Source: Candidatus Saccharimonadales bacterium
GTDB taxonomy: Bacteria; Patescibacteriota; Saccharimonadia; UBA4664; SCTI01
Reading direction: 5' to 3'
DNA length: 64,000 bases
Assembly (NCBI GenBank): GCA_035479795.1
Contig: DATIII010000004.1
Coordinates: 15,668 to 79,667, forward strand
Below the pieces are notes generated by a model that searched no databases, was not told the origin of the DNA, and saw nothing but the letters and a program-made list of their open reading frames with translations. The position numbers were made by a program, and so were the translations under genes. The first letter of the stretch is position 1. Each line of letters opens with the position of its first letter. This document shows, one piece after another, positions 28,852 to 63,221 of the stretch.

Positions 28852-29490
28852 GTGGTACAATTGCTAGCAATGGATTTGGTTTACATCATATTTGCCCTGG
28901 TAATGGCGCTTACCCTGCACGAATTTGCCCATGCCTGGATGAGCGACTACCTGGGCGACCGCACAGCTCGCTCACATGGTCGCCTAAGTATAAACCCACT
29001 AGTGCATATTGACCCGATTATGACGGTGCTGCTGCCTATCGCTCTGATTGTGGCGCACTCGCCGGTCCTGTTTGGCGCAGCCCGCCCAGTCCCGTTTAAC
29101 CCTTGGGCCGTGCGCTATGGCCGGTGGGGAGCTGCCTTGGTGGCGGCTGCTGGGCCGTTAATGAACCTACTTTTGGCCTGCTTCTTCGCTTTGTGGCTAC
29201 AGCTTTTCCCCGTTGGCGCTTTAGCTCAACTATTTATCGCCATCATTGCCGTCAATGTCGGCTTCATGGTCTTTAACCTGATGCCGATTCCGCCTCTGGA
29301 TGGGTCTCGTGTGGTTTATGCGGCCATCCCCCAGATTCGGGGCCTGTTCGACGCCATAGAGCAGAACGGACTGATTTTAATATTCGTGTTGTTAATCTTT
29401 GCAGGCCCGCTGCTGACAGGCATAATCGGCCCGATCGTCGCTGCAATTTTGTCTCTGCTAATCCCGGGCCTGACTGGTTTATCGACCTAG
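28852..29490 (+). CDS. Site-2 protease family (M50) membrane zinc metalloprotease
   Basis: HEFAHA HExxH motif within a TM helix and FNLMPIPPLDG second motif. Confidence 0.75.
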   Translation: MVQLLAMDLVYIIFALVMALTLHEFAHAWMSDYLGDRTARSHGRLSINPLVHIDPIMTVLLPIALIVAHSPVLFGAARPVPFNPWAVRYGRWGAALVAAAGPLMNLLLACFFALWLQLFPVGALAQLFIAIIAVNVGFMVFNLMPIPPLDGSRVVYAAIPQIRGLFDAIEQNGLILIFVLLIFAGPLLTGIIGPIVAAILSLLIPGLTGLST

Positions 29491-29493
29491 GCC

Positions 29494-29523
29494 TGGATCC
29501 CGAATACTCAATCCTGTATCCTG
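29494..29523. repeat. Short AATCC/ATCCT heptamer-like array
   Basis: GGATCCCGAATACTCAATCCTGTATCCTG. Confidence 0.5.
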
Positions 29524-29821
29524 TAACTAGCTCTGCATGTTGTGGTAGTCCGGTATATTTTTTTCTGTATGACTTTTTACCTCGGGAGCTCGAGATTGTC
29601 CTTGGCCTTGGCCAAGGAACTGAGAGCACCCACCTAGCTTAGGACGGGAAGAAGTTGTCCGGATACCCAACAGCGGAGATTTTTTTGTTAAAGCCTCAAT
29701 CTCGGCTCATTTCAGCGTTAACCTTGCGTCTTCGTCCTCACCGTACTAATGTGTACGTCTCGGTTGAAGTACTCGGTTTGCCTTGAAATGCGCTCGAGCT
29801 AGAGGCTTTAATGTAAAAGAA

Positions 29822-29898
29822 CGGGGTGTGGCGCAGTTGGCTAGCGCGTACGGCTGGGGGCCGTGAGGTCGCAGGTTCAAGTCCTGTCACCCCGACCA
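29822..29898 (+). tRNA. tRNA-Pro (anticodon GGG)
   Basis: CGGGGTG/CACCCCG acceptor, anticodon loop CTGGGGG, T-loop GGTTCAAGTCC, discriminator A, CCA. Confidence 0.9.
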
Positions 29899-30023
29899 GG
29901 TATTATTACAACTGACTTGAACCTGGCATTGTCGAGCGAAGCCCTGACAAAGAGGGTCATTTGAGTAGGCGCGCGCAGAAGCTACCTCCTAGTTTCGAGC
30001 ACGGCGACGAAATTGGCCTGCCA

Positions 30024-30058
30024 AAGTCCTGTCACCCCGACCAAGAATTATTACCAAT
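30024..30058 (+). repeat. Direct repeat of the tRNA-Pro(GGG) 3' end (att-like scar)
   Basis: AAGTCCTGTCACCCCGACCA is identical to 29879-29898. The next ~13 nt are also similar (GGTATTATTACAA vs AGAATTATTACCA). Abuts the stop of the dcd-like gene. Confidence 0.7.
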
Positions 30059-30581
30059 CTCCGGACTGAAAGTTTTTGTGCGAAAGCGATGCCATTGGGC
30101 CGCGGGCGTTCTGGTATTTTCCGGTATACAACTGAGGCTGGCCGATCGGTACCCAGAAGGTCATCTGCCCAATCGACATCCCCGGATAAATCTTAACCGG
30201 CTGGACTGCATGCATCTGGAGTGTCCATTGCCCAAAGGCGCCTTGATCAATTAAATCAGCTGTAATATTGATGAATAAACCGAGCCGGCCGATAGAGGAG
30301 CGGCCTTTCATGATTGGCACGTAGTTATTGCTGCCAATACGCTCCTCTATATGCCCGAGGTAGAGTCGGTTCGGCTCTAAGACCATGCCCTCCGGAGATA
30401 TTTTGATAGTCCGGGTTGCATTTGAGCGCTTAGCGTCCAGAACCGCTGGCTCGTACACCTTGATGGTTTGACCGATATGAAAGTTGTATGAGTTTGGGTT
30501 AATGTGCCGTGGGTCAAAGGGGGAAATTTGAATCCTTCCCGATTTAACCTCACTGGCTATTTCGGGCCCGGTTAGTATCAC
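30051..30581 (-). CDS. dCTP deaminase/dUTPase-superfamily protein, paralog 2 (catalytic Glu replaced by Gln)
   Basis: GRSSIGRLGL and ADLIDQGAFGQWTLQMHAV. Aligns to Dcd, but the position of the deamination Glu (E138 in E. coli Dcd) is Q. Confidence 0.65.
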   Translation of the reverse strand: MILTGPEIASEVKSGRIQISPFDPRHINPNSYNFHIGQTIKVYEPAVLDAKRSNATRTIKISPEGMVLEPNRLYLGHIEERIGSNNYVPIMKGRSSIGRLGLFINITADLIDQGAFGQWTLQMHAVQPVKIYPGMSIGQMTFWVPIGQPQLYTGKYQNARGPMASLSHKNFQSGDW

Positions 30582-31093
30582 AGCTCGAATCTTATCCGAC
30601 TAGGCTCGGCAGATGTATCACGGGCGTATTTACCTTGGTAGCTCGACCCGTGGCCCTGGACCTTCCAGAAAGTAATCTGGCCAATCTGCATACCCGCATA
30701 AATTCTCAGGGGTTGGACCACTTTTAGCTCGAGAGTCCAGTGATGGTTGGCGCCCATGTGGCCTAGATCGGCCGTGATCTGCAGCCATAATCCCAGCCGA
30801 CCCATTGTTGACCGGCCAATCAAGCTTGTAACGAAGTGGAGGCTGCCGATTCGCTCAAGCGTATGAGCTAAGTAGATTCGCCCGGGCTTTAGTACAAAGC
30901 CGTGTTGTGAAATTGTATGCCGGCTCGTCTTAAAAGGCTGCTTAGGGTCGATCAGCCCAGGTCCGAATTCAATAATTTCATTTCCTAATCGGTAGTTGTA
31001 GCTATTTGGGTTAATTTGGTCTGAGCTAAACGGCTCGATCCATATATTCCCACGGCGACGTTGCTGAATAATTTCAGGTCCGGATAGAATCAT
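30578..31093 (-). CDS. dcd: dCTP deaminase (Dcd family), paralog 1
   Basis: GRSTMGRLGL and ...WTLELKVVQP retain the catalytic Glu, but the I-D-x-G motif reads GHMG. ATGA overlap with paralog 2. Confidence 0.65.
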   Translation of the reverse strand: MILSGPEIIQQRRRGNIWIEPFSSDQINPNSYNYRLGNEIIEFGPGLIDPKQPFKTSRHTISQHGFVLKPGRIYLAHTLERIGSLHFVTSLIGRSTMGRLGLWLQITADLGHMGANHHWTLELKVVQPLRIYAGMQIGQITFWKVQGHGSSYQGKYARDTSAEPSRIRFEL

Positions 31094-31592
31094 GGCTTAG
31101 CTCGGCTTTAATCGCGGCAACTAATTGCTCCAGCTCGTCCCAGTTTTGGCCGCGGTAGGTCGCTATTCTGCTAGAGCTCGGCAGTTTGGCGATAAACTCA
31201 TCAAAGTAGCCAATCATTTTTTCTAACTGCGCTACATTCACAACCTGATGTACGCCGGGTCGATCGTGAAGTCTACTTTTTGCCAGTTCCAAGTTGGGTG
31301 CGGCGTAGATGATGATCATTTGTTCACAAATAATTGAATTAAGAATGGTCTGCTGGAGTGGGGTAAAGGGCTGAGTCCGGCCAAATATCTGGCTATATAC
31401 TACTTCGCTGATATGACCCCTCTCAATAACGGTCTGGCTGCATTGGGCGTACTCGCTAAGATACCGGTCGAACTGATCACCGCCTCGATGACCCAGCGCC
31501 TTGTGGTCCCAACCGAGGCGATTTTTAAGCTCTTTGGCAAGCGTTGACTTGCCGCCACCGTCAATACCCTCGATGAGAATATTCTTTATCAT
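31074..31592 (-). CDS. Deoxynucleoside/nucleoside-monophosphate kinase-like P-loop protein
   Basis: ILIEGIDGGGKSTLAKEL Walker A of the dNK/dTMP-kinase type; ERGHISEVVYSQIF resembles the dNK ERS motif. Overlaps dcd paralog 1 by 20 nt. Confidence 0.6.
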   Translation of the reverse strand: MIKNILIEGIDGGGKSTLAKELKNRLGWDHKALGHRGGDQFDRYLSEYAQCSQTVIERGHISEVVYSQIFGRTQPFTPLQQTILNSIICEQMIIIYAAPNLELAKSRLHDRPGVHQVVNVAQLEKMIGYFDEFIAKLPSSSRIATYRGQNWDELEQLVAAIKAELSHDSIRT

Positions 31593-32846: not shown

Positions 32847-33008
32847 TTTAGGCGCATATTTCGGCGTCTAAAGTGCGTTTTTATCATCACCGTACGCTTT
32901 GTACGCTTCTTCGAAAAACTTGCTTATCCTAGAAATCTGCTGCCCAAATTAACCCAGTACATCTGTTAAACCCTTGAAAAAGTGGCAATTTTCAGGTATA
33001 TTTACCGG

Positions 33009-33384
33009 GCTAAGGCTGCTGGATGGCTGCTCGCCAGAGGCGAGAGGAAAGTCCGGACAGCACAGAGTAAGGACGGTTGCTAACGGCAACCGGGACCAGG
33101 GAATGTGTTTCTCTCGAGAAAACATAGGCCCAAAGCCTAGGGAAAGTGCCACAGAAACGATACCGCTCACCATTTTGTGAGTAAGGGTGAAACGAGCAGG
33201 GTAAGAGCCTGCAGCCCCTCCGGGTGACCGGCGGGGGAGGTAAACCCCGTCTGCTGCAAGGCTGCTGGCAATCAGAGAGTACTCGCTCCTGCCAGCGTTC
33301 GCGCCGCACGACCCCGACGGTGACGTCGGGGCTAGATAGATGGCCATCCAATCCGCCAGCTGGCGGAGGGACAGAATCCGGCTT
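33009..33384 (+). ncRNA. rnpB: RNase P RNA (bacterial type A)
   Basis: P1 helix GCTAAGGCTGC (33009-19) pairs with GCAGCCTTAGC (33370-80). Conserved GAGGAAAGTCCGG, ACAGAAACGATACCGC and GGGTGAAACGAGCAGGGTAAGAGC blocks. Overlapping track ORFs are spurious. Confidence 0.85.
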
Positions 33385-33477
33385 ATAGGCAGCCTTAGCT
33401 TAGAATAATTATCCTTCCCGAGGGGAGGGTTTTTATTTTTCAACCTGATAAAATAGTTATGTAAAAAGTGTGAGTTT

Positions 33478-46391: not shown

Positions 46392-46879
46392 AATACCTCC
46401 AATTAATGCTTTGATTTTCACAACAAAGCCGGCAGCAACCTACCACCAAGATCGAAAAAATCTGTCATTGGCGGGCATGATTTTTTGTTAGTTCGGCGCA
46501 CCCTTATGCTTTATTTCTTATCTGTAAAATGGTATTCTTTCCAAGCTGCATCGAGTATACTTTCATGCAGTTTGGACTAGGGGCTGACAAGCTTCGACGA
46601 TTGGACTTTTACAACTCGCGCCAGCAAGCCGCAGCCATGCGTTAATTGCACCAATCAACAAATCAGAACTTTGTTGCTCGGGTAAAGAGTCTGTTTCAGG
46701 CTCCCACGCTCGTACCTGCTTACGCTTAAGTAAGCCATCGGTACCTGACTCCAGATGGGGGTTCACCGGTGTCATTTATCTGGATGCTGCCGGCGGGACG
46801 CCAGACCCGCGGGTTTAAGACAGTTGGCTGCTCTAGTCGTTATTTTGTTTGTTTCAAGACGACTAGCTAAGCTTTAAAA

Positions 46880-46993
46880 CGAACTAAGCTTGTAGAAGGA
46901 CGAGAGGTAACCATTCGGACCGGGGTGCAATTCCCCGCAGCTCCACCAAAAGGGCGCCAGTAGCAACTGGTGCTTTTTTGTTATGATGAAGCC
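46880..46993 (+). promoter_or_regulatory. Structured 5' leader with terminator-like hairpin directly upstream of the hydrolase gene (candidate riboswitch or attenuator)
   Basis: CGGGGtgcaattCCCCG hairpin, then GCGCCAGTagcaaACTGGTGCTTTTTT ending 25 nt before ATG 46994. Confidence 0.3.
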
Positions 46994-63144: not shown

Positions 63145-63221
63145 CGGGGTGTGGCGCAGTTGGCTAGCGCGCAGCATTCGGGTTGCTGAGGTCGGAGGTT
63201 CAAGTCCTCTCACCCCGACCA
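63145..63221 (+). tRNA. tRNA-Pro (anticodon CGG)
   Basis: CGGGGTG/CACCCCG acceptor, anticodon loop TTCGGGT, T-loop GGTTCAAGTCC, CCA encoded. Confidence 0.9.

Follow-up and report, generated by a model that had tools for sequence, protein, structure and literature searches.

A repeated tRNA-Pro(GGG) 3' end in a Saccharimonadales genome as a possible relic of a tRNA-linked RNA module

The stretch of DNA analysed here, referred to as the window, comprises 64,000 nucleotides of a Candidatus Saccharimonadales contig. It carries a working tRNA-Pro(GGG) gene with encoded CCA on the plus strand (29822-29898), which is called by ARAGORN, scores 60.3 bits with the Rfam tRNA model and is 98.7% identical to the tRNA of the relative L005. 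The genes upstream of this tRNA are thrS, miaA, murT/gatD and those for an Nramp transporter, the ribosomal protein L28 and an M50 peptidase (206 aa as a called gene, 212 aa as a mechanical open reading frame), all of them housekeeping genes. Downstream, the genes are of the same housekeeping kind and include two dcd paralogues, a small kinase, NUDIX, RNase H, sugar transferases, L20, L35 and IF3. The conserved neighbour of the tRNA on this side is a dCTP deaminase-like gene (dcd, 30051-30581, minus strand; Pfam PF22769, E 4.9e-40). It belongs to a minus-strand block (30051-31592) that comprises two tandem, overlapping dcd paralogues (176 and 171 aa) and, after them, the gene of a small P-loop kinase that faintly resembles dNK or thymidylate kinase.

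Several further RNAs are encoded in the window. Between the M50 gene and the tRNA lies a 6S RNA-like element (29527-29683, plus strand), whose match to Rfam RF00013 (36.7 bits, E 1e-5) scores below the gathering score of 46.4. A similar match occupies the same relative position in L141 (447-601), and the GCACCCACCT motif of the element recurs beside M50 in many related loci. The 6S-like element is separated from the tRNA by a near-perfect long hairpin of 144 nt (29678-29821, plus strand) with a minimum free energy (MFE) of -53.6 kcal/mol (z -7.3). This hairpin, whose stability was matched by none of 200 shuffles, is unique in the window and in the fetched loci. A promoter-like TTGAAA-N18-TTTAAT is found inside this hairpin, 9 nt before the tRNA. 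Farther downstream, the window encodes a class A RNase P RNA (33011-33401, plus strand; Rfam 241.5 bits), which covers the mechanical open reading frames at 32949-33443 and 33010-33351 on the minus strand, so that both are probably not genes, as well as a tmRNA (46580-46948, plus strand; Rfam 92.5 bits) that was missed by ARAGORN.

The last 20 nt of the tRNA-Pro(GGG) gene, AAGTCCTGTCACCCCGACCA (29879-29898), recur without a single mismatch at 30024-30043, and 125 nt (29899-30023) separate the two copies. Both statements had been made in an earlier note on this DNA and are borne out. The chance expectation for the 20-mer is 0.00 matches in dinucleotide-preserving shuffles. With up to three mismatches allowed, the 64 kb window contains one further match (63202-63221), which belongs to a real tRNA-Pro(CGG) gene (63145-63221). 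Aligned without gaps, the repeat spans 31 nt (29879-29909, R1, versus 30024-30054, R2; 145 nt from start to start) with 29 identical positions; the identity starts in the T-loop at A57, runs through the encoded CCA and ends 11 nt beyond it. Nine of these 11 nt are identical, in place of the roughly 13 further near-identical nt given in the earlier note. Accordingly, the proximal copy R1 (plus strand) consists of the last 20 nt of the tRNA and an 11-nt trailer, GGTATTATTAC. The distal copy R2 (plus strand) consists of a displaced tRNA 3' end, identical at 20 of 20 positions, and the sequence AGAATTATTAC, which overlaps the dcd stop codon (30051-30053). Both repeats are identical in the independent Logan contig L002. 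Neither ARAGORN nor Rfam recognises R2 as a tRNA, and the 3' ends of the other tRNAs in the window are not repeated downstream of them. Among the matches listed, such a repeat follows 10 of 110 tRNA-Pro(GGG) genes, L068 included, versus none of the 38 other tRNAs in the fetched loci, a sample too small to decide whether the copies are specific to tRNA-Pro.

The continuation of the identity past the CCA deserves attention of its own. The TTATTA behind R2 is the double stop codon of dcd, and the orthologous flank in L144 reads GCAATCATTTA. A conserved trailer motif of tRNA-Pro genes was considered as the source of the shared ATTATTAC and rejected, with none of 113 distinct trailers among the matches listed coming within one mismatch of it at that offset. 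Since the trailers of other loci lack ATTATTAC, the trailer of R1 has been copied from the local chromosome, and an attP arriving with an element should lack these 11 nt of the dcd-side flank. Two events could account for the flank identity instead, namely a gene conversion between the copies over a tract of 31 nt or more, or a 31-nt duplication at insertion. Between these options, the distribution of differences (none in the 20 tRNA nucleotides, two in the 11 flank nucleotides) favours a continuing homogenisation of the two copies.

The extra non-coding DNA between the working tRNA and R2 comes to 145 bp. Its unique body of 114 nt (29910-30023, plus strand) contains no open reading frame and no stable fold, the MFE z-scores being -0.26 to 0 on the plus strand and +0.7 to +0.8 on the minus strand. 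Near its start lies an antisense T-arm fragment of 12 nt, GACTTGAACCTG (29914-29925, plus strand), the perfect complement of tRNA positions 29872-29883, with which it forms an inverted repeat. No second copy of the body was found in the window or the fetched loci, and no Rfam family matches inside the insert. A transposon or MITE with a target-site duplication of 2-14 bp was also considered and rejected: the duplication measures 20-31 nt, the window holds no second copy, and the region 29000-31000 has no terminal inverted repeats besides the T-arm fragment. The spacer and the 57 nt before R2 resemble the 5' part of the tRNA and its upstream region no better than shuffles do (p = 0.6-0.99). A likeness of the spacer to the region downstream of the tRNA in L005 was likewise discarded, as 47 of 1000 shuffles score equally and the reverse-complement control scores higher.

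An empty site, for which the earlier note had proposed to look, is present in L143/L144. These contigs share the gene order M50, 6S-like RNA, tRNA-Pro(GGG) and dcd in the same orientation as the window, and their tRNA CCA lies 8 nt from the dcd stop. In the window, it is the CCA of R2 that lies 7 nt from the dcd stop, and the alignment of both loci leaves about 145 extra nt in the window. R2 thus holds the position that the tRNA 3' end has beside the dcd stop in L143/L144, which identifies it as the probable old tail of the tRNA in its ancestral place. This comparison of filled and empty states at the window locus covers three lineages whose DCD proteins share about 71-72% identity. As no dcd homologue in the databases is closer than 71-72%, the comparisons are made at roughly genus to family distance, and a dcd protein search of genome contigs returned no close relatives, its matches being 46% identical and from unrelated bacteria. 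On the other side of the tRNA, the 144-nt hairpin is absent from L143/L144, where the 6S end lies about 18 nt from the tRNA. Relative to L144, the window tRNA therefore has extra DNA on both sides.

The same relatives bear on the genes beyond R2. NUDIX, kinase and the two dcd genes also adjoin the tRNA-Pro(GGG) gene of L005, and the same holds for L143/L144 up to the ends of these short contigs. As dcd-dcd-kinase adjoins the tRNA with or without the insert, the block is not cargo, which refutes the suggestion that tandem integrations had brought a kinase-dcd module to the far side of the second copy. The dcd-dcd-kinase block is kept in all related loci examined (L005, L007, L010, L143, L145 and L147). 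The orientation of the tRNA itself is not constant: in L005/L006, tRNA-Pro(GGG) is inverted (L005 6565-6640; compare L144 792-867) with the orientation of the flanking dcd and M50 genes unchanged, and both orientations relative to M50-L28 occur across at least 120 metagenome loci.

These loci were obtained by a metagenome scan with the 40-nt 3' part of the tRNA as query, which yielded at least 120 of them. Among the matches listed, 15 of 111 informative Saccharibacteria loci carry a non-coding module of 110-190 nt directly after the tRNA. The modules follow a common plan. An optional terminator-like hairpin comes first. After it, the T-arm and the acceptor 3' strand of the tRNA reappear in antisense and in degenerate form, often with GAYTTGAACC; one to three hairpins follow, and the final 17-29 nt of the tRNA form the end of the module in sense orientation. 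This sense copy closes 13 of the 15 modules (L112 and L127 have the antisense copy only), and the tail ending in CCCCGACCA is intact in about half of them. GAYTTGAACC is also the motif of the antisense T-arm in the window, and it opens the modules of L110, L131, L077, L112 and L127. Two pairs of filled and empty loci are available in addition to the window locus. L124 differs from L130 by one gap of 188 nt and L067 from L047 by one gap of 191 nt; in each pair, the repeat of the tRNA end borders the gap, and the sequences align on both sides of it. The best-preserved group, type 1, is located about 35-195 nt after tRNA-Pro in L026, L030, L041, L067, L090, L114 and L124, with L042 and L140 as variants. 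Further loci with candidate RNA modules are L077, L131, L141, L112, L127 and L110. A second type has the core GAYTTGAACC...CAGCCAGTGGCTG, and L110 holds a compact version of 86 nt. L068 is a separate case, in which a true tandem of tRNA-Pro(GGG) and tRNA-Pro(CGG) is interrupted by a 43-nt spacer.

Judged by its covariation, type 1 is a candidate structured RNA, and Rfam has no match to the type 1 modules. RNAalifold on a MAFFT alignment of the seven members predicts 31 pairs, 14 of them compensatory. In the model-fitted alignment, which was fitted to the structure and hence leans towards it, 93.9% of the cells are paired versus 35-50% with the partners slid. Of the 31 pairs, 16 change on both sides, and none of 500 shuffles reaches any of five measures. 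On the plus strand, 26 G-U pairs are opposed by three A-C pairs, which favours the tRNA strand and disfavours the minus strand. The folds of single type 1 sequences have MFE z-scores of -1.7 to -6, and these folds suggest a closing helix between the antisense and the sense tRNA-derived strands. Between hosts, the modules are 62-73% identical at the nucleotide level, the M50 proteins 61-72% at the amino acid level, and both have the same closest pair. This divergence fits old vertical descent with repeated loss rather than a recent spread. The placement of the candidate RNA speaks against a module of this kind, as it comes after a terminator-like hairpin and a scan of L067 revealed no evident promoter. 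A likeness of type 1 to the 5' region of tmRNA was considered and dropped; there is no Rfam tmRNA match, and the tmRNA of the window itself lacks the motif.

Whether the insert in the window belongs to this group is less clear-cut. A covariance model built for type 1 (model R1) scores 28.3 bits (E ~1e-5) on window positions 29901-30047, compared with 107-153 bits for the members and 13-18 bits for tRNA ends alone. The link is weak, given that a false positive of this model, a real tRNA with its upstream sequence in L063, reaches 23.8 bits. By nhmmer, the real sequence scores 17.9 bits, compared with a mean of 6.9, a standard deviation of 1.65 and a maximum of 16.5 bits in 400 controls in which the spacer was shuffled and R2 left unchanged. 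The nhmmer alignment (29954-30044) pairs the hairpin GAAGCTA-CCTCC-TAGTTTC (29974-30002, plus strand), with its flanks CGCAG and GAGCAC, with the type 1 hairpin H3. The aligned segment GGGTC...CGCAG[hairpin]GAGCAC (29954-30002) corresponds to H3 with its conserved flanks, and no other type 1 hairpin than this H3-like one has been kept. Both tRNA-derived copies are present in the window, the sense copy with its 20 nt at 30024-30043 and the antisense copy with 12 nt, which is far shorter than in the members. The window spacer has no closing helix and no terminator, and in place of the stable multi-hairpin fold of the members, its z-score is near 0. By BLAST, the region downstream of the tRNA in the window is linked to the other modules by the tRNA end only. 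Hence, it is plausible but unproven that the insert is a degenerate copy of a type 1 module.

We tentatively favour, if by no great measure of confidence, the explanation that R2 is the distal, tRNA-derived end of a decayed RNA module linked to tRNA-Pro, the repeat being kept by conversion and serving as a substrate for clean deletions. The repeated tRNA tail would then belong to the module instead of marking the former site of an island. In the subfamily that is preserved best, pairing between the antisense and the sense copy could apparently close a structured RNA made from the tRNA strand. Short-tract gene conversion between copies 145 nt apart may keep R1 and R2 identical, and in the window it could also have placed the 11 nt of dcd-side flank behind the working tRNA. 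A clean deletion of the module by recombination or slippage between the copies would leave an empty site such as that of L143/L144. The copy in the window would have lost the closing helix and the stable fold and would thus probably be non-functional now. Support for the module comes from the position of R2, the recurrence of such modules, the pairs of filled and empty loci, and the covariation and host-like divergence of type 1; in the window itself, the nhmmer and model R1 scores, the antisense T-arm, the flank identity and the lack of an integrase, cargo or attP in the DNA searched point in the same direction. Against it, a perfect R2 (20 of 20) beside a decayed body makes it necessary to assume gene conversion.

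With somewhat more reserve, this explanation can be extended to the phylum. Saccharibacteria may possess an undescribed, vertically inherited family of structured RNAs of about 110-160 nt that is fused 3' of tRNA-Pro(GGG), and the repeat in the window would lie at the border of a member in decay. Each RNA of the family would consist of antisense and sense copies of the tRNA 3' half with variable hairpins in addition, often ending in a ...CCA tail. Conceivably, it could pair with the 3' half of the tRNA or mimic it and thereby act on the maturation of tRNA-Pro or on enzymes that handle tRNA 3' ends.

The strongest competing explanation, which we consider unlikely but far from negligible, is that of an att scar. 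Here, an element with a tyrosine integrase would have inserted into the segment from T-loop to CCA and supplied R1 as replacement 3' end, before a later deletion reduced it to 114-125 bp and left attL and attR 145 bp apart. The general principle has been described for islands in tRNA genes (Islander; PMC4383910), as have tRNA fragments left behind by integrated elements (PMC9897764). The geometry of the locus is that of the textbook. As in the attL/attR pairs of islands and prophages with tyrosine integrases, an intact tRNA gene is combined with a displaced 3' fragment, the direct repeats reach from the T-loop to the CCA, the distal one lies directly at the original flank, and relatives have empty sites. 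Moreover, at the 5' border of R2 the identity falls abruptly from 20 of 20 to random, which resembles a recombination junction. This much of the earlier note, which had read the repeat as the footprint of an integrase-mediated insertion, therefore stands, namely a displaced tRNA 3' fragment that bounds extra DNA and an empty counterpart. The part that is not supported is the insertion of a mobile element by an integrase. Neither the 30 open reading frames of the window compared with Pfam nor the gene calls for about 10 kb on either side of the locus include an integrase. The same applies to 10 long open reading frames downstream of the same tRNA in relatives, which include queA, an EamA transporter, an AI-2E transporter and an HD/RNase H protein as well as four without a Pfam match.

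Further copies of the repeat, which the earlier note had likewise wished to see sought, are equally missing at a distance. In none of the at least 120 related loci listed does the tRNA end recur at a distance of more than 200 nt, and the sequence after the tRNA extends for 3 kb or more in 40 of these loci and for 5 kb or more in 22. Scans of IMG/VR with the 20-mer and an 18-mer returned 17 contigs, in which 16 matches fall in phage tRNA or tRNA-like genes and one in an open reading frame of 513 aa. Taken with a third scan for the type 1 hairpin motif, the search for an attP-like copy gave only phage tRNA(-like) genes or chance matches in coding sequence. In 10 of the viral contigs (L011-L017 and L020-L022), the matching gene is a tRNA-like gene of 77 nt, CGGGGTGTATTGTCAATTAGGAGACGG...GCAGGTGCAAGTCCTGTCACCCCGACCA, within phage tRNA arrays; it combines the acceptor and T-arm of tRNA-Pro with an odd body and is not called by ARAGORN.

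The insert itself also departs from what attL/attR islands contain. Only 125 nt lie between the copies, with no integrase, no attP-bearing element and no foreign cargo; the 114-nt body is non-coding, and the dcd-kinase genes beyond R2 are conserved neighbours. The identity enters the local flank at the dcd stop with nine of 11 positions, and the repeated block varies in length from 17 to 29 nt among loci. In addition, inserts of 110-190 nt recur with covarying structure and host-like divergence, unlike the random remnants of deletions, and the insert in the window weakly resembles this conserved RNA module. Elements of the CIME type come closer in some respects, being small non-coding segments with att-like repeats at a tRNA gene that lack a recombinase of their own. 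Known CIMEs are kilobases long and lie beside identifiable ICEs or derive from them. The modules described here differ by their size of 110-190 nt, by the lack of any parent element in sight and by a divergence that fits vertical descent.

A one-off event of template switching or break repair appears improbable as the origin of the locus, at perhaps half the weight of an att scar. Unconnected with the modules of other lineages, it would have generated a local 31-nt duplication and added filler DNA of about 114 nt, the antisense T-arm being a snap-back copy. Such an event would account for a duplication that takes in 11 nt of the neighbouring sequence with the stop codons of dcd, and for a spacer that has neither a detectable source nor a fold. 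The region does rearrange, as demonstrated by the tRNA of L005 that is inverted between two unchanged flanks. Furthermore, the succession of sense, antisense and sense pieces of the tRNA 3' half resembles the inverted triplications that arise by template switching. On the other hand, two mismatches in the flank but none in the 20 nt of R2 are not likely for a neutral duplicate that does not undergo conversion, the similarity of the spacer to type 1 is significant, if weak, and the same architecture occurs in 15 other loci among the matches listed. Finally, a decayed second tandem tRNA-Pro gene that lost its 5' part is very improbable in spite of the real GGG-CGG pair with its 43-nt spacer in L068, given that the 57 nt before R2 do not resemble a tRNA 5' part (semi-global alignment, p = 0.8-0.99) next to an R2 that matches at 20 of 20 positions, that R2 matches the GGG gene and not the CGG gene at 63145-63221, and that neither ARAGORN nor Rfam calls a tRNA there.

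Returning to the favoured reading of a tRNA-linked RNA module, known RNAs offer partial parallels. Bacterial Y RNAs (YrlA; PMC4201824) and the tRNA-like domain of tmRNA are likewise small structured RNAs that reuse the acceptor and T-arm of a tRNA. Unlike them, the modules have no match in Rfam, their tRNA-like part would be a 3' strand paired to an antisense copy without the elbow of a cloverleaf, and they are linked to tRNA-Pro instead of rsr or smpB. Another parallel is 3'ETS-leuZ of Escherichia coli, a non-coding RNA that is also located directly downstream of a tRNA on the same strand. However, sRNAs of the 3'ETS kind are short unstructured trailers that end at the terminator of the operon, whereas the modules start with a terminator-like hairpin and are predicted to adopt a multi-hairpin fold closed by tRNA-derived strands.

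Taken together, the case bears on a signature that is routinely taken as proof of the arrival and departure of a mobile element, the duplicated tail of a tRNA gene. In Saccharibacteria, this signature often bounds a tiny tRNA-linked RNA module. At the present locus, reading it as an island would mislabel conserved genes of nucleotide metabolism (dcd, dcd and kinase) as cargo. For the window itself, the practical result is modest, in that the extra DNA is a non-coding relic and not an island. If the RNAs are real, the modules would provide a concrete case of tRNA-end repeats that are kept for reasons other than integration, and they would constitute a new class of non-coding RNA in a phylum with very small genomes and a reduced RNA-processing machinery.
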